DNA of 64,000 nucleotides from Tannerella sp. Lineage in GTDB: Bacteria > Bacteroidota > Bacteroidia > Bacteroidales > Tannerellaceae. Numbering within the stretch: position 1 is the stretch's first letter; every line of letters begins with the position of its first letter. The notes under the pieces were generated by a model. The model was not told the origin of the DNA, searched no databases, and saw nothing but the letters and a program-made list of their open reading frames with translations. The translations under genes and the position numbers were made by a program. The stretch spans positions 7,923 through 71,922 of the forward strand of contig JAIRMH010000099.1 in the NCBI GenBank assembly GCA_031258835.1, written 5' to 3'. Below are positions 1 through 12,058 of the stretch, piece after piece.

Positions 1-226
1 GAGAAAATTCAATTCCGTCCAATCCTAAATCAGCTAAATTATTTATTGCCTCGGAAAGAGGAATGTTACGTTTCTTGAAGTCACGCCATAAAATCCAACC
101 CATCGCCCATTGAAGATTTTTCCCCTTTTGTGAAATCTTCCTGTTTGAGCAAGACGCAAAACCGACCCCTGCAACCATTGACAGCGAACCGACAGCAACA
201 TTTTGTATAAAAGATCTTCTATTCAT
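1..226 (-). CDS. Tat-exported (lipo)protein, sugar-phosphate isomerase/epimerase (xylose-isomerase-like TIM barrel); 5' part only, runs off window edge
   Basis: Manual translation from ATG at 226: MNRRSFIQNVAVGSLSMVAGVGFASCSNRKISQKGKNLQWAMGWILWRDFKKRNIPLSEAINNLADLGLDGIEFS. It has a twin-arginine motif, a lipobox-like FASC, and the xDLGxDGIE motif typical of the AP-endonuclease-2/xylose-isomerase-like barrel. Not in the ORF track because it is truncated. Confidence 0.7.
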   Translation of the reverse strand, partial: MNRRSFIQNVAVGSLSMVAGVGFASCSNRKISQKGKNLQWAMGWILWRDFKKRNIPLSEAINNLADLGLDGIEFS

Positions 227-254
227 ATTGATATATTTTTATAAGTTTATATAA

Positions 255-1259
255 TTATTTAGGATCTACTTCCCTGTATGCCTGTATAATGGCCATTTCA
301 CCTTCTTTTCCGGGCTTGCTCTGCCCGTGTTCAAGGGAAATCACTTCGTCGTAGTTGCGATTATGCAGCCATTGAAAAATAAATTTGTAGTTGATTTCAC
401 CTGATGTCGGTTCATTGCGTCCGGGGTTATCGCCGACATGTATAGACCCGATATAATCCCAACAATCGATCATGTTAGGGATAAGATTCCCTTCCGTGAC
501 TTGCTGATGATAGAGGTCGTTCACCATTTTGCAACACGGGTGATTTACGGCTACGCAAATCATTTTGGCCTGCGTGGTGCGCGTAAGGAAAACACCAGGA
601 TGATTCACGTACGTATTCAGCGGTTCCATCACTAATTCCAAACCGGCATCACCGACAATATCACAGCAAAACCGCAAATTCTCAATAACATTGGCAGTCT
701 GATATTCCACATGCAATTTAGGATCAATATTACCCAATACGATCAGGCCTTTATTGATACCCGTACGCTTCTGAACTTCAAGCCCTGCCAGCATTTTCTC
801 TTTCAACATGTTCCTGACGGAATCATTTTTAAGAACGAAATGCGTACCTCCGGCTGTTTTCAGGGAAAACTGTCCCAGTTCGAGACCCCGTTTATGGGCT
901 TCATTGGCTATTTTTTCCTGCTCCTGCACCGGACGTTCTATCAGCCCAAGATCATAAGCCGCACGAAAACCCTGGTCGGCAATAAACCTGAGGTTATCGA
1001 CAGTATCCTGCCCGGCGTTCTGTTTAAACATGCCCAACGCAGGGGCATATTTCAATGTAAATTTAGCGCCGTTCGACACCCTTGCACTTGCACTCGCATT
1101 CGCATTCGCATTTGCACTCGCACCCGCACCCGCACTTGCATTCGCACTCGCATTTGCACTCGCATTCGCCACCGCTGGCTCACCCCCGTTCATTCCTGCG
1201 CCAAGAGATGCTAAAGCGGCGCTGCCGACAATTCTTTTGATAAAATTTCTACGTTCCAT
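255..1259 (-). CDS. Tat-exported hydroxypyruvate-isomerase-like (xylose-isomerase-like TIM barrel) protein
   Basis: MERRNF Tat motif; Hyi-family motifs [37 protein letters not shown]. Confidence 0.85.
1084..1167. repeat. 14 x 6-bp in-frame tandem repeat (GCAYYY) encoding an Ala-X linker after the Tat signal
   Basis: gcactt gcactc gcattc gcattc gcattt gcactc gcaccc gcaccc ...; protein [28 protein letters not shown]. Confidence 0.95.
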
Positions 1260-1267
1260 ATTCCTGT

Positions 1268-2008
1268 TTATTTATTAACATTAAAAATCATTGTTATCCC
1301 CACTAAAAGTAATGAAGCAAACACTACTTTCTTGAAAAGCGTTTCACTTACCCTTTTATGTGTAACTTCGCCTGCTATTATCCCCAAAATCAAAAAAGGG
1401 AACAAGAATAACAGTTCACATCCGACAGTTTCGGTTATTTTCTTTTCCATAAAATATTGTATTAACAATACGGAATTCAGCATTGCCCATAAAAGGCACA
1501 TTGTTGCGCGAAATTGCCCTTTGTCCGTTATTTTGTGCGCCGAATAAAGCACGATCAAAGGACCTCCAGTAGCAAACGCTCCGTGAACGACTCCTCCGAA
1601 AAACAGATAGAGATATCGCGGGACAACAGTCCGTACACGTTGTTGGAAAGACGCCTTATACAGTTGTATGGCTGCCGTAAATATGATGAATATCCCCAAT
1701 ATCCTCATTAAGGTATTACCATCCATACTTTTGAACATTAGCATCCCTGCCGGCATCCCCGCCCCGGCTAAACCTGCAATGATCCCCAATTGTTTCCAAT
1801 TGATTTCTCTCGATTTGGCGATTGCAAAATACGCAGCCAATATCCATGCAAAAATCGAAAGAATGATTTTGGAATGTTCCATATCTCCGTCCAAAAGCAT
1901 AAGTACAAACGGAAACGCCAACACCGTACAGCCGAATCCCGTCACGGCTTCAAGCGCATGAGTGAGTAATATTACGATTCCTGCAGAAAATAACTGTAAC
2001 GTATCCAT
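1268..2008 (-). CDS. TauE/SafE family sulfite/sulfonate exporter (putative isethionate exporter)
   Basis: 246-aa polytopic membrane protein, VTGFGC and GAFATGGP motifs; context of SQ-pathway genes. Confidence 0.85.
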   Translation of the reverse strand: MDTLQLFSAGIVILLTHALEAVTGFGCTVLAFPFVLMLLDGDMEHSKIILSIFAWILAAYFAIAKSREINWKQLGIIAGLAGAGMPAGMLMFKSMDGNTLMRILGIFIIFTAAIQLYKASFQQRVRTVVPRYLYLFFGGVVHGAFATGGPLIVLYSAHKITDKGQFRATMCLLWAMLNSVLLIQYFMEKKITETVGCELLFLFPFLILGIIAGEVTHKRVSETLFKKVVFASLLLVGITMIFNVNK

Positions 2009-2011
2009 TCC

Positions 2012-3286
2012 TTATATTTTAAGCGTTAACAAGGAAACAATCATCGCCTCATCCATATCGACAATATTATTTTTCATCTTCGGATCGTCAAGCGACTTGC
2101 GAAACAAATCCCCTATCCTGCCGACTTCCAAACAGATATTTAAATCGCCGAAAGTAAACGGCAAAGAGAATTTCTTTTTCAATGCGACGATTCTGTCCAG
2201 CAATGCCGCAGTCATGCAATCGTCGTCGCGTTCTCCCGATGCCGCAGCAGTCATGCGATCGTCATTGTGTTCTCCCGATACTGCCGCAGTCATGCGATCG
2301 TCATTGTGTTCTCCCGATGCCGCGGTCATACCGGCGTCGCTTTCTCCGAACAGTTCCCTGCCGATTTTTGCAAGTCGCCGTTTCGTAGCCACATTCACAA
2401 CATTGAGCCGGAAGACGTCTTCAAGTAGAAACGCACAAGCCGTTCCGTGCGGGACATGCCACTCTTCGGAGAGGATAAACGACAAGGCATGAACTGCCGC
2501 CGTGCCCGTCATGCTGAAAGCCGCTCCTGCCATACATGCTCCTTCGAGCATCTCGGCGCGACCATCCGTCGACCCCGACAATGAACTATCGTAGGCGCGT
2601 TCCATCCATTTCAGGATATGTACGGCGCTTTCTACAGCCACCCTGTCGGTTAGCGGATTGGCGTTTTTGTTCCATATTGTTTCCAAAGCATGCGAAAGCG
2701 CGTCAAAAGCAGTCGAAGCCGTGAGAGCCGGAGGAAGCGTTTCGACATATTCAGTAACAAGAACGGCGATATCTGCCTGCATCAAAGGATGCCCTAACGT
2801 ATATTTGCGTCCGTCGTGCGACGTATAAACGCCCACTTTCGTTACCTCCGAGCCGGTTCCTGCAGTAGTAGGAATAAGTATCAGTTTAACATCCCGTTTT
2901 TCTATTTTTCTTGACGGCATTGCTCCCAGATAATCATCCGGTTCGCCGCCATTACTTAATATGACAGCCACGCCTTTGGCCGCATCCATCGAACTGCCGC
3001 CACCAATACCGATCACCACATTAACAGGCTTGCCTTTCATCGCGTTGACCATTGCCGTCACGTCACGGGTCTTCGGATCAGGAAACACCTTGTCTTGAAT
3101 TTCTACGTTACGTAATTTTTGCAACCCTTTGAGCATGGCGTCGCGCGGCGGCAAGGGATAATTGTCGATAATCATGCATGGATAAGCGCTCTCCCCGCCA
3201 ACGTAAAAGATGAGCTTGTCCATATCCTGTGGCGATAAATGTCCGACACGGATAATTTTAGTGGTCGTTACAGCTTGTTCAAACAT
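2012..3286 (-). CDS. Iron-containing (group III) alcohol dehydrogenase, putative sulfoacetaldehyde reductase (SqwF-like)
   Basis: GGGSSMDAAK, PTTAGTGSEVT, DALSHALE, HALS...HVPHG metal ligands; the specific function is inferred from context. Confidence 0.85.
   Translation of the reverse strand: MFEQAVTTTKIIRVGHLSPQDMDKLIFYVGGESAYPCMIIDNYPLPPRDAMLKGLQKLRNVEIQDKVFPDPKTRDVTAMVNAMKGKPVNVVIGIGGGSSMDAAKGVAVILSNGGEPDDYLGAMPSRKIEKRDVKLILIPTTAGTGSEVTKVGVYTSHDGRKYTLGHPLMQADIAVLVTEYVETLPPALTASTAFDALSHALETIWNKNANPLTDRVAVESAVHILKWMERAYDSSLSGSTDGRAEMLEGACMAGAAFSMTGTAAVHALSFILSEEWHVPHGTACAFLLEDVFRLNVVNVATKRRLAKIGRELFGESDAGMTAASGEHNDDRMTAAVSGEHNDDRMTAAASGERDDDCMTAALLDRIVALKKKFSLPFTFGDLNICLEVGRIGDLFRKSLDDPKMKNNIVDMDEAMIVSLLTLKI
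2204..2329. repeat. About 3.3 copies of a 36-39-bp in-frame tandem repeat inside the Fe-ADH gene
   Basis: Repeated gcagtcatgcgatcgtcattgtgttctcccgat; protein MTAASGEHNDDR MTAAVSGEHNDDR MTAAASGERDDDC MTAA. Confidence 0.95.
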
Positions 3287-3298
3287 TGATTTACCGGT

Positions 3299-3781
3299 TT
3301 ATTTATACAATTCCGTTTCCATGTCGCCGATCTCTTTCACACAGTTCGCCAGGAATATTTTCCAGTCATCGTCAACGCCATCTGTGAAATTTGTTTCCAG
3401 CCACTTATCAATCAGTAGAAATGCATGTTTTGGCGGTGTCAACCATTCGCCGAACACTACGACATTACAATTATTAATAGCTTTCGCTTGCTGTGCAGTG
3501 AAAGTATTGAACACATGCACAGGATATACGCCTTTGAACTTGGCCGCTGTGATAACGCTGCCTGCGCCCGTACCGCAAATAATAACGCCGCGCCGGTATT
3601 TTTTTTCAGACACTCCGCGAGCGACTGCTGCGGCCGCTTTATGGTAAGGCACAAACTCCCCGTCCGTTTTCATGCCGACGTCATCCGCCTCAAATCCCTT
3701 GTTTTCCAGGTAAGCAATCAATTCCCCCTTCAAGGTCAGACCCGCGCGGGTACTACCTATAATAATTTTTTCTTTTCCCAT
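3299..3781 (-). CDS. RpiB/LacAB family isomerase, putative sulfoerythrose isomerase (SqwI-like)
   Basis: ICGTGAG catalytic motif and NNCNV. The N-terminal GSTRAG replaces canonical GxDHxG, suggesting altered specificity. Confidence 0.85.
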   Translation of the reverse strand: MGKEKIIIGSTRAGLTLKGELIAYLENKGFEADDVGMKTDGEFVPYHKAAAAVARGVSEKKYRRGVIICGTGAGSVITAAKFKGVYPVHVFNTFTAQQAKAINNCNVVVFGEWLTPPKHAFLLIDKWLETNFTDGVDDDWKIFLANCVKEIGDMETELYK

Positions 3782-3799
3782 TCCAATTCTTTTTAAAAG

Positions 3800-4741
3800 T
3801 TATTTTTTCTTTCCCAGTAATTTTATTGCATTAGAAGCCAAATTCTCGGCTGTCAGGCCAAAACGTTGTTGCAGGTATTTTTGTTCGCCAACCTCTCCAA
3901 ATTCATCGTTTACTCCTATACGTTTCATTAACGTCGGATAATTTTCCGAAAGGACTTCCGCTACCGCAGAACCTAATCCGTTTATTATCTGGTGATTTTC
4001 AAAAGTAAGCAGTGCGCCCGTTTTCTTTGCATACCGCAATACAAGTTCTTCGTCAATCGGTTTAACAGTATGCATGTCAATCACAGCTGCTGATATACCT
4101 TTACCGGCAAGTATTTCGCTTGCCTTCAACGCTTCATTCACGGGAATAACGCCGATAGCAATTAATGCGACATCGCCGCCGTCCTTCAACACCTTCCCTT
4201 TTCCCAATTCAAACGTCTCATTTTCAGAATATATAACCGGAGCGGGCTTACGAAACAGCCGCATATAGGTACAACCCTGATGATAAGCGCTTTTAACCGT
4301 CAACATCTTCAACGATACCGGATCGCACGGTTCAAAAACGACTAATTCGGGTATATTCCTCATGATGCCCAAATCTTCAAAAGGCATGTGTGTCCCCCCA
4401 TTATATGCAGCCGATATACCAGGGTCTGTGCCTGTTAGCTTAACATTACGCCGTGCATAATTGGCCGAAATAAAAAATTGATCGTACGTTCTTCGGGAAG
4501 CAAAACATCCAAAGGTATCGGCAAAGGGAATCTTTCCTCCCGCCGAAAGACCGGCGGCAATCCCCACCATATTGGCTTCCGCCACACCTACATTAAAAGT
4601 ACGTTGCGGAAATTTATTACGGAACGCGGTGGTGCCCGATGCTTTCATCAAATCAGCCTCCAATAACACAATCCGCTCATCTTTTTCCGCAAGTGTCATA
4701 AGTGTCTGAGCATATACCGCTCTCATCTCCAATTGATCCAT
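3800..4741 (-). CDS. Transketolase, C-terminal (pyrimidine-binding) subunit, SqwH-like
   Basis: VGVAEANMVG, NGGTHMPFED, ENHQIINGLGSAVAE; start moved to ATG 4741 (MDQLEMR). Confidence 0.92.
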   Translation of the reverse strand: MDQLEMRAVYAQTLMTLAEKDERIVLLEADLMKASGTTAFRNKFPQRTFNVGVAEANMVGIAAGLSAGGKIPFADTFGCFASRRTYDQFFISANYARRNVKLTGTDPGISAAYNGGTHMPFEDLGIMRNIPELVVFEPCDPVSLKMLTVKSAYHQGCTYMRLFRKPAPVIYSENETFELGKGKVLKDGGDVALIAIGVIPVNEALKASEILAGKGISAAVIDMHTVKPIDEELVLRYAKKTGALLTFENHQIINGLGSAVAEVLSENYPTLMKRIGVNDEFGEVGEQKYLQQRFGLTAENLASNAIKLLGKKK

Positions 4742-4763
4742 CGTTTTTTTCCATGTTAAAAAT

Positions 4764-5588
4764 TCAACTATTGTCAAGCATGACGCAAGCTTCTTGCGCC
4801 ATTTCATATTTCACATTCATATTATGATTATCCAAACGTCTTTCTGCAAAGAATGCACCTTTGCCTTTGATCGTATCAAGAATGATCATCGAAGGTCTGT
4901 ACTGTTCTTTTTTCGCACGTTCGACAGCCATGTCCATATCTTCAAAATCGTGACCATTAACACGCTGGACAAACCATCCGAAAGCGCTCCATTTGGCGTT
5001 CAAGTCTTCTATGTTCATAATGTCGTGCACATAACCGTCAATCTGCATCTTGTTGTAATCGGTGAAAGCTATCAGGTCGTTCAATTTGAAATGTGCTGCG
5101 GCCATCGCTCCTTCCCATATCTGTCCTTCGTTCGATTCGCCGTCGCCAATAATGAGATACACTTTTTTATTGATCCTGTCAAGCCGGTTTGCCAATGCAA
5201 TACCGACAGCCGCCGATATACCCTGTCCCAGCGAACCGGTAGACATGTCGATGCCCGGCGTCCGGTTCATATCACAATGACTGGGCAAATTCGTACCGCC
5301 AACGTTCAAGGTATGCAACCATTCCGTTGGGAAAAATCCCTTTTCCGCCAGGATGCTGTACAAGGCCGGACCGGCATGTCCTTTCGACATCACCAGCTTG
5401 TCGCGTTCTTTTTTGCCGGGGTCTACAGGAGAAACTTCCATGTGACGTTCATACAGCAACGTCAGGATTTCTACCACCGATAAAGCGCCACCTATATGGC
5501 CGACCCCCAAATATCCGATAGCATCAATCGTCATTTTGCGGATTTCTTTCGCTTTCGCTTCCAATCGTTTTATTTCCAATAATTCCAT
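4764..5588 (-). CDS. Transketolase, N-terminal ThDP-binding subunit, SqwG-like
   Basis: GHIGGALS, SKGHAGP, STGSLGQG, GDGESNEG..N ThDP motif. Confidence 0.93.
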   Translation of the reverse strand: MELLEIKRLEAKAKEIRKMTIDAIGYLGVGHIGGALSVVEILTLLYERHMEVSPVDPGKKERDKLVMSKGHAGPALYSILAEKGFFPTEWLHTLNVGGTNLPSHCDMNRTPGIDMSTGSLGQGISAAVGIALANRLDRINKKVYLIIGDGESNEGQIWEGAMAAAHFKLNDLIAFTDYNKMQIDGYVHDIMNIEDLNAKWSAFGWFVQRVNGHDFEDMDMAVERAKKEQYRPSMIILDTIKGKGAFFAERRLDNHNMNVKYEMAQEACVMLDNS

Positions 5589-5602
5589 TTTAATAATTCC
5601 GT

Positions 5603-6268
5603 TTATATCAATATTTTTATATTATCGCCTGTAATGCCCGGCCATGCGCCTTTTTGCATCAAGGGTTCCCTGTCGGGATGAGCAAGCAACCATTTATTGC
5701 GGGCGAACAGATATTTGTCGCCATATTTTGATTTATCATTTTCCAATGGCTCATTAGTGCCGCGCGGCAAAACCACAATACATTTAAAACCTTCGGAACA
5801 TGTTTTGCAAGGGGAAAAATGCAACGTTGTTTCATATAATTGTACGGCAGTATGCTTAGGGACGAAAAACGCTTCCACTTCTCTCGAAAAATAATATCCT
5901 CCTTTTATATCCTGCAAATGTCCCACCAACAGTACGAGATCGGTAACCGCTACGTCAATCTCACTGCCGCGATGATACTCCAGTCCGTTCAAAGTAGAAT
6001 TACGTCCGTTGCAATAACCTGTCTGAACCGGCATTTCACCATAAAACCCATTTTCCAGCAGATTTCTAAGCGGTAAATTTTCCAGTTCCGACACCGATGC
6101 TTTGTATATATTACCTTCTTCTGGAATTGACGTTTCGTTTTCCATGTAATTCAACGCTTCCGTAAAATCATAGTCCGTAATAAGCGTACCATACGCCCGG
6201 AACGATTCATTGCTTACTTCTTTTATCTCAATATGAGCGTTTTTTAGCGCCAGCTTTTCAATGATCAT
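5603..6268 (-). CDS. DUF4867 family protein (SftX/SqvB-like, marker of sulfoglycolysis clusters)
   Basis: GYCNGRNSTLNGLEYHRGSE, LYETTLHFSPC, ARNKWLLAHP motifs. Confidence 0.85.
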   Translation of the reverse strand: MIIEKLALKNAHIEIKEVSNESFRAYGTLITDYDFTEALNYMENETSIPEEGNIYKASVSELENLPLRNLLENGFYGEMPVQTGYCNGRNSTLNGLEYHRGSEIDVAVTDLVLLVGHLQDIKGGYYFSREVEAFFVPKHTAVQLYETTLHFSPCKTCSEGFKCIVVLPRGTNEPLENDKSKYGDKYLFARNKWLLAHPDREPLMQKGAWPGITGDNIKILI

Positions 6269-6291
6269 TGTAAAAGATTTTAATGATTAAA

Positions 6292-7626
6292 CTAATATTC
6301 TTTATGCTCAATACCCCAAAAATTACACATCATCCTTACTTCTTCGGTAATCTCGCCATACGCCGCAACGAAATGAGGCTCCCAGCCGTCGCGGACAAGT
6401 TCGGCTATTTTTGCAGCCGGAGAACCCGAAAGCGGACGAACGGTAAGCGATGTACCACAAAACTTTTGCGGTTCGTCCAGCGCTTGACCTCTCATAGTCA
6501 TCATCCTCAATCCATTCTTATCTTTACCTAAACGAAGTATGGTAACAGCGCCTTGTTTAAGGCCAAATTCCATGGTCGGGCCGATTCTCCGGTTTGGATG
6601 TACTCCGAGGAAAGCGCCTTCGGCTGTCCTCGCCAACGACGTAGCTCCCGCTCCACAGTGCCAGAACACAATGCCACCGCATCTTTCGTCGATAGCGACA
6701 GGATCGCCGAAATATGCGGCGCCGGCTGTCAATTCGGATGCGATATACATGCTTATAGCTCCTCCGATGTCCGTCTCGCATGACGCCGCTATGCCGGCAT
6801 CATTCAACAACGATAATACGGCGCACACCGGAACCCCGTATTCTGTGAAAAAATCCGGCCAACAACGCGACGCAATGCTTTTCACTCCGTTTTGCACGGC
6901 AAACTCCTGGTAAGATTTACGCAACCGGGCATACTTGTCCAGATTTTCGGCCGGTATTGATTCCCATCCCTTAGTCCGCGCTTTCAATTCCGCCAGTTCA
7001 CCTGTAATAGCTTCCGATGCATACGATTTCGCCTGCTTTATGATGTTTGCCGCTTCGGTACGAACGATCCTGACGCCGAGTTTTCCTGCGAGCAGGGCCT
7101 CATCGACATCGCCAAAGCCAAACCCGGCCGGTTGAGAGCCAACAACGCCTATCACAAGGTCAGACATCTTTTTCGTTAATGAGAACGCAAACATCATTTG
7201 CCTGAATTTAACTTCAACAGCCGATTCGTCCGGATTACCTAAAACAAACCTGTAATTATATCCTTGCATGAACAGGCTGTTGCATGCGGAGAAGGCGCCG
7301 GTCAGGGAGTTCAACCTTAACCTGCCACCATCAATAGCAGGTTCGCGTAATGACCAAACGACGACCGGGCAATGAAAACGCCGCGTAATCTCCGACACAA
7401 AATCGCTGCCTATAAACGTAGCGCACTGATAAATTACCAACCCGGGATTATCGACCGTATCCATAAAAACCGATAACATTTCGGGAGAAGTAAGCAATTC
7501 CTGAGGATAGCAAATATCATCAAAAAATCGGTTTAGCAGATTGCACGATCTCCTAAAATTGTTTTCGGCGTCAGCTATTGAAAACGTCGTCCGAGCCAAG
7601 GGCAGAAAAAGTATTTTCGATTTCAT
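6292..7626 (-). CDS. L-fucose/L-arabinose-isomerase-fold protein, putative sulfoquinovose isomerase (SqvD/SftI-like)
   Basis: GGRLRLNSLTGA, RCWPDFF, SCETD, FWHCGAG, VHPNRRIGPTMEFGLK, EPHF motifs. Confidence 0.82.
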   Translation of the reverse strand: MKSKILFLPLARTTFSIADAENNFRRSCNLLNRFFDDICYPQELLTSPEMLSVFMDTVDNPGLVIYQCATFIGSDFVSEITRRFHCPVVVWSLREPAIDGGRLRLNSLTGAFSACNSLFMQGYNYRFVLGNPDESAVEVKFRQMMFAFSLTKKMSDLVIGVVGSQPAGFGFGDVDEALLAGKLGVRIVRTEAANIIKQAKSYASEAITGELAELKARTKGWESIPAENLDKYARLRKSYQEFAVQNGVKSIASRCWPDFFTEYGVPVCAVLSLLNDAGIAASCETDIGGAISMYIASELTAGAAYFGDPVAIDERCGGIVFWHCGAGATSLARTAEGAFLGVHPNRRIGPTMEFGLKQGAVTILRLGKDKNGLRMMTMRGQALDEPQKFCGTSLTVRPLSGSPAAKIAELVRDGWEPHFVAAYGEITEEVRMMCNFWGIEHKEY

Positions 7627-7656
7627 TTTTTTTTGACTTTGTTAAATATGAAAATA

Positions 7657-9024
7657 TCACTGTACCTTACGATTCCTTCGTTGCGCCAACTCTCCTATAA
7701 TCTCGTTATAACGCTTATCCGAAAGTTTGTAACAAAACAACATCACGATAAATGTCGCTACCGCTAAAACGCCGGGGTAGATAAACATAAGTCCCCTGAT
7801 ACCCGTCAATGCCGCAGAGGTCTGCTCCTGATTGGGGATATATCCGGCGACAGCCAATACCACGCCGGGGATGAATCCGGCTATCGCTTGCGAGAATTTA
7901 CGAAAAAAGGTGAAAAATGAGTAAACAAGACCTTCCAGTCGTTTGCCGGTTTTCCATTCACCAAATTCTACAGCATCCGATACGAAAACCCAATTGAGCG
8001 TATTAATGAACGAAGATCCGAAAAAAGCTACGCACGAAAGAACAATAAAATCGAACGTATCATTGGCGAGAAACCATGCCGAAAGATCGGCAATCGCCCA
8101 GATCAGGCAGCCAAGCACATACGTCATCTTTTTACCTGTACGCCTGACTGACAACGGCACAAACGCGACACCGATAAAGACGCATAAAATGCTGAAAAAA
8201 CCCATATACGGCACTATATTAATGTCGTTAAGCGAATACTGGCAATAATAAACCTGTACAGCTAATTTTACATTAAAGGCGGAGAACGTAAACAAATTGA
8301 CCAAACACAAGACCAAAAGAGGCATATTTCGAAAAATAGAAGCAAAGCCTACCTTAAGCGATATTTGCTCCTTTTGCCGTTTTACGTCAACATGCCGTTC
8401 CTTTACATTGGCATAACACGTCAACTGCAAGGCCAAACCGGCAAAGGCGAAAACGGCAGCCGCTACCGTATAGCCGGTCTGCATATTATCGAAAGCGGTA
8501 ACAATCGGCATGAAACCCACAGTAGTCAATAGCAAACCGGTATTGGCTCCCGCCCACCGCATCGAAGCCAAATCGGAACGCTCTACCGTATTGCGCGTCA
8601 TAGCCGGTATCATCGATCCGTAAGGTATATTAAAAATACTGTAAACCGTGCCAAAAGTCATGTATGTGGCAAATGCCCATACCGTACGCCCTGTCAGGTC
8701 GAAATCCGGAGTTGTGAAACTGACTACCGTCATAAGCGAAAGCGGTAACGCGGCATATAGCATAAAAGGCCGGAACTTTCCCCTCTTACCGATATTTTTA
8801 CGGTTATCAATCCATGTACCCACGGCAAGATCGGCAAAACCGTCCCACAATTTTGTAACGAGAAACACTAACCCCGCCGTGGTTGCCGGCAAACCCAATG
8901 AATCGGTATAAAATTTCAGGAGGTAAATCTGCCCCATATCAAAGAGGAAATTATTACCCACATCGCCTAACCCGTAGGAGATCTTTTCTTTAAGAGTTAT
9001 ACCTTTGTTTAGTCCTGCTCCCAT
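7657..9024 (-). CDS. yihO: GPH-family MFS cation symporter, closely resembling the E. coli SQ importer YihO
   Basis: Long stretches shared with YihO/YihP as recalled: YLLKFYTD, RKNIG..GKFRPF.LYAA.P, IFRN.PLLVLC..NL.T..AFN.KLA.QVYY.QY.LNDIN, MGFFS, GEWKTG. Confidence 0.8.
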   Translation of the reverse strand: MGAGLNKGITLKEKISYGLGDVGNNFLFDMGQIYLLKFYTDSLGLPATTAGLVFLVTKLWDGFADLAVGTWIDNRKNIGKRGKFRPFMLYAALPLSLMTVVSFTTPDFDLTGRTVWAFATYMTFGTVYSIFNIPYGSMIPAMTRNTVERSDLASMRWAGANTGLLLTTVGFMPIVTAFDNMQTGYTVAAAVFAFAGLALQLTCYANVKERHVDVKRQKEQISLKVGFASIFRNMPLLVLCLVNLFTFSAFNVKLAVQVYYCQYSLNDINIVPYMGFFSILCVFIGVAFVPLSVRRTGKKMTYVLGCLIWAIADLSAWFLANDTFDFIVLSCVAFFGSSFINTLNWVFVSDAVEFGEWKTGKRLEGLVYSFFTFFRKFSQAIAGFIPGVVLAVAGYIPNQEQTSAALTGIRGLMFIYPGVLAVATFIVMLFCYKLSDKRYNEIIGELAQRRNRKVQ

Positions 9025-9033
9025 ATACTTGCT

Positions 9034-10230
9034 CTATCCCAATTCTTTTACATCGATTACCCTCTTTTCCTGTGCGGAACGAACAGATCCTTCCATTATC
9101 CGAACTACTTGCCGAGCCATGTAACCATCAGGATAAGATTTTTCCTTTCCCTCCAATACCTTTACAAAATGTTTGAATTGTTCAACCACGCCATCTCCTT
9201 CTCTGTTATTAGCGTTCAGCGCTATTTTTTCGGGTTGGGGCAAATCTTGCGGCTTGGGGAATCCGGGAGCGGAACCATACCGTATGTCAAGTATGCCTCC
9301 TCCCATTTGTAACGTGCCGTTGACGGCAAAAAATGTATCCAATGCCGTCGAACCGTAATTGTAAACGTTCCCGCCATAATTCATCAAAGCGCCATTCGCA
9401 TAATAAGCAAGTACACCCGAATGATCGCTCGAATCACGCTTACGCAAAGAGAAGTTATTGACGCCCTGCAAACTGACAACAGAGACCGGCTCGCTGTCGA
9501 ATACCCAATTATTCACATCGATTATATGCGCTCCCATTTCGTAGACAACGCCCCCGCTACGTTTCTGATTTAAACGCCAATACGGAGTGCCTGCCGGATA
9601 TTCGTCGGCATCCGGAACACGCCAATCCCCCCTGAAATCATACAGACTTGATTGCAGTATCTTTCCAACCGGTTTCGCACGTACACACTCTATCAATGTT
9701 TTGTATTCACCTGAATGACGACGCTGATGGCCGATTTGCAAATATCTTCGGGTGCGTTCCGAAACGCCGATAATATCATTACATTCAGACACCGTCAAAG
9801 CTAACGGTTTTTCGCAGAAAACATGCTTGCCCGCTTCCATTGCGGCAATTGCAATCTCTGTGTGCGTGTCGTTTGGAGTGACAATAACAATCGCATCTAT
9901 TTCGCCCATGTCAAACACCTCTTTCATGTTAGCGATAAATTTCGGTTTAACACCGGTTTTAATCAATTGCGCACGCTGTTGCATCTTATGAGGTACAATG
10001 TCGCATAAAACGCTCATTTCAAGTTCGGGAACACTGTTCAATGCACTTATCAACGCCTTGCTGCGGTTCCCGCATCCGATAATGGCCATCTTAAACTTTG
10101 AAGCGGCAACATCTCCTTTCTCGCTGAAAAGATGCTTCGCCATCGACTCGCCGCCCGATAAAATCAAGCCGCCACCGACAAGTCCGCTCGTTGTAATAAA
10201 ATTACGTCTGGTAAAATTTTTCTCTTTCAT
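9034..10230 (-). CDS. Tat-exported Gfo/Idh/MocA family NAD(P)-dependent oxidoreductase
   Basis: TRRNF Tat motif, IIGCGNR Rossmann motif, GKHVFCEKPLA, GGVVYEMGAH. Confidence 0.9.
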   Translation of the reverse strand: MKEKNFTRRNFITTSGLVGGGLILSGGESMAKHLFSEKGDVAASKFKMAIIGCGNRSKALISALNSVPELEMSVLCDIVPHKMQQRAQLIKTGVKPKFIANMKEVFDMGEIDAIVIVTPNDTHTEIAIAAMEAGKHVFCEKPLALTVSECNDIIGVSERTRRYLQIGHQRRHSGEYKTLIECVRAKPVGKILQSSLYDFRGDWRVPDADEYPAGTPYWRLNQKRSGGVVYEMGAHIIDVNNWVFDSEPVSVVSLQGVNNFSLRKRDSSDHSGVLAYYANGALMNYGGNVYNYGSTALDTFFAVNGTLQMGGGILDIRYGSAPGFPKPQDLPQPEKIALNANNREGDGVVEQFKHFVKVLEGKEKSYPDGYMARQVVRIMEGSVRSAQEKRVIDVKELG

Positions 10231-10449: not shown

Positions 10450-11478
10450 TCAGAATTTATCGGAAACGATTGATGCAGGTAAAACGCAATTGATCTTTTT
10501 ATTTTCTTTTGTTTCGATTTGGTTCAGCAGAATATCAAATGAATGTTTACAAATCTCATACATAGGTTGTTTCACATATGGGATAGAAACGCCTGTCGCT
10601 ACCTCCATCCGGCCAAAACCTACAATTTGCACGTCGGATTGGAGTTTGACGCCCATATTTATCAGGCACCGGCTGGCAAGAGCCGTTATACCGCCTGTCG
10701 CAAAAACAAAGCCGTCCACTCCGGTATTCTTCAATTTTTCCGTTAGAAAATCTGCAATCTTTTCATACTTAAGGCTAAAATAATCAATTTCGCATATCAA
10801 ATTTTCGTCAAAGCTATTATTTGCGGTTAACGCATCTACGAATCCTCTTTTTCTATCTTGAAGATGCATCAGACTTTCTTTATACGATATAAAAGCCAAT
10901 TTCTTACAGCCTTTCCCTATCAATAATTGCGTCGCCATTAGGGTTATTTCATAATTGTTTATAATAACGCGACTGGTGTTCAACGTCTTAAAATAACGGT
11001 CCACATAGACAATCGGAATATCAAGCCCCAATTTTTCAATTTCCTCCTCTTCGATATTAGCGATCGGAACCATGATTACCCCGTCGACCGGCCTGTTTGA
11101 AAGCATATTGAATACGGGAAGCAAACGTTCTTTTTTTTCTCCCGTATTGAGAATTATCAATGCATATCCTTTTGATTCCGCATACTCCTGCAGGTTATAT
11201 GCCATAGCGCCAAAGAAAACATCGGATATATCAGCTATAACCAATGCAATCGTATTGAAGCACCCGGTACGTAACCCCCTGGCAACCACGTTAACCTGAT
11301 AATTCATCTCTTTTGCTGTCATACGGATCTTTTGCGCAAGTTCTTCACCGATTCTGCCTTGCTTCTCCTTGCCATTAAGAACAAACGATACCGTAGAGCG
11401 CGCTACACCCAACTCATCTGCAATACTCTGCATAGAGACTTTCTTTCCCGACGTTTCCCTTTTTTTCGGTTTATCCAT
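10450..11478 (-). CDS. LacI/GalR family transcriptional regulator
   Basis: N-terminal HTH SMQSIADELGVARSTVSFVLNG, YQVNVVARGL hinge, periplasmic-binding-protein-like C-domain. Confidence 0.93.
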   Translation of the reverse strand: MDKPKKRETSGKKVSMQSIADELGVARSTVSFVLNGKEKQGRIGEELAQKIRMTAKEMNYQVNVVARGLRTGCFNTIALVIADISDVFFGAMAYNLQEYAESKGYALIILNTGEKKERLLPVFNMLSNRPVDGVIMVPIANIEEEEIEKLGLDIPIVYVDRYFKTLNTSRVIINNYEITLMATQLLIGKGCKKLAFISYKESLMHLQDRKRGFVDALTANNSFDENLICEIDYFSLKYEKIADFLTEKLKNTGVDGFVFATGGITALASRCLINMGVKLQSDVQIVGFGRMEVATGVSIPYVKQPMYEICKHSFDILLNQIETKENKKINCVLPASIVSDKF

Positions 11479-11723: not shown

Positions 11724-11794
11724 TGTTCTATGGTGTAATGGTAAACCGTCAGATTCTGGTCCTGAAATTCAAGGTTCGAATCCTTGTAGAACAA
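11724..11794 (+). tRNA. tRNA-Gln (CTG)
   Basis: Acceptor TGTTCTA/TAGAACA, anticodon loop TT-CTG-GT, T-arm CAAGG-TTCGAAT-CCTTG; D-stem poorly paired. Confidence 0.85.
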
Positions 11795-12058
11795 CTTCTT
11801 AAAAATATTTATGACAAAGGGTATATCTTAATCCAACCTGTGGCCTGCCCATTCAAATAATTATAGGATGTATGGATAGCAAATTCCATAATAATCCCTG
11901 AACAGGAAACGTTGCCATGCTCTGAATATACACTATTAGGTGGCGTGAAACGTTCATTATTCATAACATTATGTACTACGCGGCCATGCCGATTGACAAA
12001 GATTAGTTTGTCTTTATAGAATCTTTTCTGATGCTCCCTGATATAAAAATCCGTTACG

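Follow-up and report, generated by a model that had tools for sequence, protein, structure and literature searches.

The left end of a 64,000-nucleotide stretch of Tannerella sp. DNA (hereafter the window; contig C77:7923-71922 of the source genome G000, which is 86% complete) carries a minus-strand operon that we propose, with a probability of about 0.6, to belong to a Bacteroidales polysaccharide utilization locus (PUL) for glycosides of the plant sulfosugar sulfoquinovose (SQ). In this proposal a co-inherited set, consisting of a Gfo/Idh/MocA oxidoreductase (Gfo) and two triosephosphate isomerase (TIM)-type barrels, would replace the usual glycoside hydrolase of family 31 (GH31) by stepwise, non-Koshland oxidation, elimination and hydration in the periplasm. 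The three open reading frames (ORFs) that a first-pass annotation of this DNA had singled out are all found on the minus strand where it placed them, 9034-10230 encoding the Gfo/Idh/MocA protein and 255-1259 and 1-226 encoding PF01261 barrels. The operon runs in the order LacI, Gfo, GPH symporter, SqvD-like isomerase, DUF4867, transketolase (TK) N-subunit, TK C-subunit, RpiB, iron-dependent alcohol dehydrogenase (Fe-ADH), TauE, TIM1 and TIM2, with neighbouring genes between Gfo and TIM2 spaced by -44 to 30 bp. To the left of the window, the complete TIM2 gene is followed by a gene remnant of 115 amino acids (aa), a lipoprotein gene, SusC, SusD and the contig end. The features are:

10450..11478, minus strand: LacI-family regulator, likely in control of the locus (Pfam LacI/Peripla_BP; orthologues 61-94% identical adjoin related loci)
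9034..10230, minus strand: Gfo/Idh/MocA oxidoreductase with a twin-arginine translocation (Tat) signal, predicted SQ-glycoside 3-dehydrogenase (domain, Tat signal, conserved residues, co-distribution)
7657..9024, minus strand: GPH-family symporter, predicted SQ importer (TIGR00792, 468.6 bits; 49% identity to E. coli YihO and YihP)
6292..7626, minus strand: SqvD/SftI-like SQ isomerase (NF048012, 433.5 bits, cut-off 700; 39% identity to an above-cut-off SftI)
5603..6268, minus strand: DUF4867 protein, typical of sulfofructose transaldolase (sulfo-SFT) and sulfo-transketolase (sulfo-TK) clusters (PF16161; 55% identity to the DUF4867 of a locus with YihQ and SftI)
4764..5588, minus strand: TK N-subunit, SqwG-like (56% identity to the TK of L128, a locus with YihQ and SqvD)
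3800..4807, minus strand: TK C-subunit, SqwH-like (50% identity to the L128 counterpart)
3299..3781, minus strand: RpiB/LacAB isomerase, SqwI-like (domain and family profile matches)
2012..3286, minus strand: Fe-ADH, SqwF-like, predicted sulfoacetaldehyde reductase (profile matches; 44% identity to the Fe-ADH of the SqvD locus L162)
1268..2008, minus strand: TauE/SafE exporter, SqwE-like, predicted to export isethionate (PF01925)
255..1259, minus strand: TIM1, Tat-type Hyi/OtnI/YcjR-like TIM barrel (PF01261), candidate hydratase or keto-isomerase/epimerase (E212, D248, H274, E310)
1..226, minus strand: 5' part of TIM2, Tat-lipoprotein IolE-like TIM barrel (PF01261), predicted 3-keto-glycoside lyase/hydratase (whole gene C77:7219-8148, 309 aa)
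C77:2589-5807, left of the window: SusC, predicted outer-membrane importer (TIGR04056, 910 bits)
C77:666-2573, left of the window: SusD (PF07980)

The operon is predicted to run the sulfo-TK pathway from SQ to isethionate. SqvD, the split TK, RpiB, Fe-ADH and TauE are clustered in it, with SqvD below the NF048012 cut-off, and two SqvD controls linked to YihQ score lower still on that profile, at 402 and 409. The TK halves stand at 56/50% identity to L128 versus at most 39/33% to paralogues in their own genome, and the symporter at 49% identity to YihO/YihP, the other GPH transporter of the genome reaching 26-27%. Orthologues of SusC and SusD, 56-79% identical, occur in related SQ loci. Homologues of all core functions of the sulfo-TK pathway of Clostridium sp. 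MSTE9 (SqvD, SqwGH, SqwI, SqwF, SqwE; PMC12890257, in excerpt) are present in the source operon, which differs in having SusCD and a YihO-type symporter and in lacking YihQ. The excerpted text of the same review covers sulfo-TK in Clostridia/Firmicutes, Spirochaetes, Thermotogae and Tenericutes and does not name Bacteroidota there. In some related loci, a sodium:solute symporter stands in place of the YihO-type transporter (L089:352-1803, L090:1344-2816). In the related Bacteroidales SQ loci L101, L186 and L187, Fe-ADH and TauE are replaced by an HpsG-family glycyl-radical enzyme, which scores above the NF048011 cut-off at L101:14677-17990 and L187:2767-5247 and is a 76% HpsG homologue in L186:5336-7073; L101 also holds an activase-like gene. 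This swap hints at C-S cleavage within the same cell, on dihydroxypropanesulfonate (DHPS) or isethionate, and the HpsG homologues may lend a sulfonate context to the proposed PUL.

A classical sulfoquinovosidase was not seen beside these genes. The first-pass annotation had reported none in the visible operon and had pointed to the adjacent DNA as the place to look; GH31 is absent from the window part of the operon and from the 7.9 kb leftward to the contig end, and that DNA holds SusCD, as it does in relatives, with DUF1080 genes found only in the corresponding loci of relatives. A downstream GH31 was rejected as the SQ releaser over the same 7.9 kb. None of the four GH31 proteins of the 86%-complete genome exceeds 28% identity to E. 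coli YihQ, where controls reach 48-58%, and the YihQ Q/R/W sulfonate motif is absent from them. No YihQ-level match was found in nine genomes with SqvD, two of them 100% complete (best 32% identity or 150 bits); this check used protein queries in seven of the eight other SqvD genomes plus two more genomes, and in G562 an NF007746 profile search only, in which the E. coli control fell below the cut-off. A GH31 of the 4XPO type adjoins or sits near the SQ loci in L096 and G472. It was rejected as a hidden sulfoquinovosidase: it occurs in 35 of 183 family genomes, was not found in five of the nine SqvD genomes (100%-complete G521 included) and has no YihQ motif. The same GH31 bears on the idea that the cells take up only free SQ, or that an unlinked GH31 or a housekeeping BT2158/DUF1080 pair sets SQ free, with the Tat genes serving an unrelated glycoside. 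We consider this very unlikely, although the genome does encode, away from the operon, a true BT2158 orthologue (877.7 bits against a cut-off of 750) beside a DUF1080, as it would leave the exact co-distribution of Gfo and TIM2 with SqvD unexplained.

That co-distribution was seen in several samples. Among the 183 family genomes, SqvD occurs in nine and TIM2 in the same nine; Gfo occurs in these nine and in one 55%-complete genome whose contig stops after the Gfo gene, and TIM1 in eight, all SqvD-positive. The co-conservation with sulfo-TK genes that the first-pass annotation had proposed as a check was therefore borne out. In order and phylum samples totalling 401 genomes, SqvD and TIM2 were each found once, only in G000, and no independent lineage appeared. 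A metagenome set held 80 SqvD loci, 21 of them at least 60% identical to the source SqvD (Bacteroidales-type). Within this group Gfo is present in 12, and in 10/10 with at least 4 kb of upstream sequence; TIM2 is present in 4, a DUF1080 lies directly after Gfo in 8, and YihQ is found in 0/21. The other 59 loci, many of them near-identical copies, have a Gfo orthologue in none and YihQ in 27, or in 23 of the 24 with at least 7 kb upstream. A scan of genome contigs with Gfo as the query, covering 3 of 64 parts, returned one true orthologue among 80 loci, the rest being distant Gfo proteins; SqvD at 35% or more was found in none of the other 79. One non-Bacteroidales locus, L138:3600-10120 (and likewise L139), combines an ABC permease, GntR, an M24-like protein, a signal-less Gfo, a TIM barrel, an SqvD scoring 662 bits and a PFK-type kinase, and no GH31 is visible up to the contig ends; it is possibly an independent recruitment of Gfo and a TIM barrel, or a module for another sulfosugar. 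Relatives of TIM2 and Gfo outside Bacteroidales were seen in Compostibacter hankyongensis, Blastocatellia and Acidobacteriota (P0193, P0225, P0247). The DNA of the source locus itself was found in one sequencing run, a termite gut metagenome; no RNA data set is among the listed holders of this DNA, and the named Gfo homologues at 65-92% identity carry the label of Tannerella sp. metagenome-assembled genomes.

Gfo, TIM1 and TIM2 are likely periplasmic. Tat signals had been claimed for all three, and on TIGR01409 (cut-off 16.7 bits) this held for Gfo (18.7) and TIM2 (20.3), with TIM1 falling just short at 15.0. The signal of TIM2 also has a lipobox-like FAS-C. Of the genome's 2140 long ORFs, 25 (1.2%) carry the motif RRxF[ILVM] in their N-terminal region, and three of these 25 lie in this operon; the genome also encodes TatC.

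Gfo, which forms a small discrete family, is predicted to be an SQ-glycoside 3-dehydrogenase. Across 68 aligned sequences K141, R200, W203, R204, E231 and H235 are invariant, and Q169 is present in 67. The arrangement Q169, R200-x-x-W203 and E231-x3-H235 matches the pattern of AL3 (Q161/R192/W195/D248/H252), with E for D, and lines up with the BT2158 orthologue of the same genome; a similar pattern in another paralogue (C326, 431 aa) means that it is not specific. The invariant R204, R263 and R265 are candidate sulfonate binders. By sequence, the best PDB matches to Gfo are proteins of its own fold that are either generic or oxidise C3, DgpA1 reaching E 3e-30 in a profile search. In TIM2, H179-x-H181, D209, H235 and E281 are invariant in 66 aligned sequences, and the metal site formed by H-x-H, D and H, together with the one catalytic Glu, aligns to that of BT1 and IolE, a His replacing the Trp of BT1.

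Read together, these genes suggest the following route. SusCD would import SQ-glycerol or a related SQ glycoside, and the Tat-exported Gfo, with tightly bound NAD, would oxidise C3. TIM2, through its metal site of IolE/AL1 type, would then eliminate the aglycone to leave a 2-hydroxy-3-keto-sulfoglycal, to be hydrated by TIM2, TIM1 or a DUF1080 protein. Gfo would re-reduce the resulting 3-keto-SQ and so regenerate its cofactor, and free SQ would be taken up by the YihO-like symporter and converted by the SqvD, SqwGH, SqwI, SqwF and SqwE homologues to isethionate. The substrate, the localization and each catalytic role we infer from what was observed, namely the gene content, the lack of a YihQ-level match, the co-distribution and the conserved residues. 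Tat export and a bound cofactor would put this Gfo in line with BT2158 (PMC8121099, in excerpt) and AL3, and free NAD+ has no effect in the AL, BT and P2B11 systems (bioRxiv 10.1101/2024.03.25.586180). A place for DUF1080 proteins in 3-keto pathways is supported by the excerpted PMC9007349.

Relatives add a second Gfo (Gfo2), a DUF1080 gene or both to the cluster, and the source locus, which lacks the two, is a reduced form. The fullest form, in G472, G521 and G542, ends TIM1-TIM2-Gfo2-DUF1080. Clusters with two Gfo and two TIM genes and no DUF1080 occur in G536, G560 and G973, a TauE-TIM1-TIM2-Gfo2 block being retained on a separate contig in the last. PF06439/DUF1080 genes lie directly after Gfo in 8 loci or in the cluster tail in 4 genomes. 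Since identity between the two types does not exceed 29% and they fall in two distinct clades, DUF1080 may have been recruited separately twice; G000 carries unlinked DUF1080 genes, one of them 60% identical to the tail type. A housekeeping paralogue of Gfo2 matches in 159 of the 183 family genomes, and in six of the nine SqvD genomes the SQ locus was observed to contain a copy. G000 has lost Gfo2 from its SQ locus, a loss that parallels the in vitro dispensability of AL4/BT4, the second Gfo of the known systems (bioRxiv 10.1101/2024.03.25.586180). The match of the 115-aa ORF at L001:6713-7060 to a G536 gene of 312 aa is confined to the final third of that gene, and this remnant would mark the site of a rearrangement in which the second Gfo was lost. 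Misassembly was rejected as the cause, one 3157-bp contig, possibly from the source sample, running from the SusC 5' end to the TIM1 3' end with no differences. Elsewhere in G000, a housekeeping cluster at L179:935-6024 (contig C49) combines two Gfo genes with a gene of 518 aa and a TIM barrel bearing a Tat signal. The Gfo family of 458 aa represented there is the one found in 159/183 genomes, and the SQ-locus paralogue of that family has no PDB match at E 1e-8.

Several observations weigh against the proposed route. Gfo does not belong to the BT2158 family (65.9 bits on NF058561, cut-off 750), and its top five VIA-align matches are structures of the GH188 sulfoquinovosidase SqgA (Z 35.9-36.3, root mean square deviation 2.6-2.7 Å, 333-335 residues aligned, 18% identity). 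Gfo has the same two-domain fold (Z 36.3), and K141, R200, E231 and H235 fall at SqgA K107, R166, E189 and H193, as inferred from offsets. SqgA also resembles the proposed system in its C3-oxidation chemistry and in complementing loci without GH31 (PMC10755693, in excerpt). The structural matches and residue positions, with the fact that Gfo is the most constant member of the cassette (10/10 informative loci), favour a reading in which Gfo alone is a new NAD+-dependent, GH188-like sulfoquinovosidase and the TIM barrels and DUF1080 proteins are accessory. We judge this unlikely. The Z values are tied with those of non-hydrolases (3db2 35.6, DgpA1 35.3), and the sequence match to the GH188 structure 8QC2 reaches only E 2e-11. 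The sulfonate loop R166-x3-L170-x-K172, an instance of the GH188 motif R-x3-L-x-K (PMC11465081, in excerpt), was not found by regular expression at that loop in Gfo or its homologues, nor anywhere in the 26 Gfo-like ORFs of G000, in searches run without a GH188 positive control. The position corresponding to SqgA H321, as placed from offsets and a WlbA alignment, would be V348, where no conserved His is present. TIM2 is retained in 9/9 SqvD genomes. SqgA itself is a single enzyme, and its marine example is reported to lack a signal peptide (excerpted PMC12780224). The comparison with GH188 and 3-keto-glycoside dehydrogenases that the first-pass annotation called for returned an AL3-like active site together with a structural tie.

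The barrels raise difficulties of their own. IolE is the nearest match to TIM2 (Z 32.6, E 1e-30), and AL1/BT1 reach only E 3e-11 to 5e-10 and lie outside its top 50 structural matches. The best NCBIfam matches of TIM2 and Gfo are IolE (TIGR04379, 118.7 bits) and IolG (119.5 bits), which would suit an IolG/IolE/IolI-like entry of cyclitols made up of Gfo, TIM2 and TIM1 and unrelated to SQ. We regard this as highly improbable: both scores are far below the cut-offs (290 and 355), IolD is below its cut-off in 5/5 carriers (3/14 controls pass), and inositol catabolism is cytoplasmic. IolE, too, eliminates beta to a ketone. TIM1 is the weakest link of the stepwise proposal, as it looks like an isomerase or epimerase and need not be an eliminase. 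It matches the 3-ketoglucoside 4-epimerase YcjR (E 1.7e-9; hhalign 97.7%) and keeps two Glu bases, and an ESM Atlas search with TIM1 found only generic TIM/Hyi clusters. Both barrels had been described as xylose-isomerase-like and assigned to a redox-elimination system; TIM2 retains an AL1/BT1-type metal site while lying nearer IolE, and the site of TIM1 is of the isomerase/epimerase type. The YcjR match and the two dehydrogenases in relatives would agree with a cassette whose main task is to make SQ from another sulfosugar, be it an epimer of SQ or an amino derivative, with archaeal glycans as one conceivable source. The sugar would be oxidised, epimerised and reduced again, in the manner of E. 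coli YcjS/YcjR/YcjQ on gulosides. Such a role, which could coexist with stepwise cleavage, seems quite unlikely as the explanation of the cassette, for Hyi/OtnI models match TIM1 with better scores than YcjR does, the recruitment of DUF1080 and the single-base, eliminase-type site of TIM2 favour elimination, and the opening of SQ glycosides without YihQ would be left unexplained.

Three further points count on the same side, the first of them the chief weakness of the proposed mechanism. Natural SQ glycosides are alpha-linked, and the alpha-lyase of the AL/BT system is a DUF1080 protein, of which the source locus has none. In P2B11, TIM barrels serve both anomers (bioRxiv 10.1101/2024.03.25.586180). 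On two short contigs, L087 and L098, the genes upstream of SqvD are unrelated ones, and no Gfo is visible. Finally, the carriers form one clade (99% support in the Shimodaira–Hasegawa-like approximate likelihood ratio test, SH-aLRT) in a quick SqvD tree of 49 of 84 sequences, after removal of near-duplicates, plus an outgroup. They probably share one acquisition, and their co-distribution is hence not independent evidence.

The nearest known systems share parts of the proposed route. P2B11 (Oxido1/2 and Iso1/2; PDB 8TDI) cleaves glucuronides in both alpha and beta linkage and, at a slow rate, a sulfoquinovoside (bioRxiv 10.1101/2024.03.25.586180). Like the clusters of G536, G560 and G973, it combines two Gfo proteins with two xylose-isomerase-like TIM barrels and no DUF1080, and its substrates, like those predicted here, are glycosides with an anionic C6. 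It differs in its Gram-positive source, its preference for glucuronides, and its lack of a nearby transporter or regulator and of a link to sulfoglycolysis; the source Gfo matches 8TDI at E 2e-12 and Z 33.6 only. The BT2156-2160 and Alistipes AL1-5 systems share with the source locus a Tat Gfo with the Q/R-x-x-W/[DE]-x3-H site, the metal motif of the TIM-barrel lyase and the Bacteroidota periplasm, as well as a DUF1080 (in relatives of the source locus) and a dispensable second Gfo. They differ in their broad glucoside specificity, and the source Gfo is not orthologous to theirs. The source cassette also lies within a SusCD and sulfo-TK locus, has an extra Hyi-like barrel, and is found in a genome that keeps a separate BT2158 orthologue.

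Some smaller features of the operon were also recorded. An in-frame 6-bp unit is repeated 14 times at window positions 1084-1169, giving an Ala-rich linker after the TIM1 signal peptide, and an in-frame 39-bp unit occurs three times at 2208-2323 within Fe-ADH (424 aa versus 383-411 aa in relatives). A tRNA-Gln gene at 11724-11795, at the LacI end of the cluster and near the rpoC end, is a possible insertion site. A promoter and terminator scan of the locus gave results at chance level.

The architecture had been put forward as new, and this stands in part. The chemistry is already known from P2B11 (main text of bioRxiv 10.1101/2024.03.25.586180); what would be new is its dedicated coupling to sulfoglycolysis. 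A stepwise cassette in a sulfoglycolytic cluster was not found in the literature, of which subscription journals were largely uncovered, and only GH31 and GH188 sulfoquinovosidases appear in the excerpts of PMC13436972, PMC12890257 and PMC12780224. Sulfo-TK in Bacteroidota was likewise not found within the same coverage; one of two reviews (PMC13436972, PMC12890257, both in excerpt) mentions sulfoglycolytic homologues in bloom-associated Bacteroidota. A wider claim, on which we are evenly divided, is that this would be the first sulfolipid PUL, joining SusCD import to a dedicated multi-enzyme periplasmic redox-elimination system that would form a third sulfoquinovosidase class, with an undescribed Gfo family and the first sulfo-TK pathway in Bacteroidota, and that some relatives, having a glycyl-radical sulfolyase in place of isethionate export, may degrade SQ as far as sulfite within a single cell.

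Two of the carriers, G472 and G521, are near-complete genomes. Genes for GH31 and GH188 sulfoquinovosidases serve as markers for SQ degraders, and a multi-enzyme route, if true, would be invisible to such surveys. The stepwise 3-keto pathway would gain a substrate-specialised physiological role, and SQ degradation, a major pathway of the sulfur cycle, would gain a third way in. Gut Bacteroidales would then join the primary SQ fermenters that supply isethionate to H2S producers.

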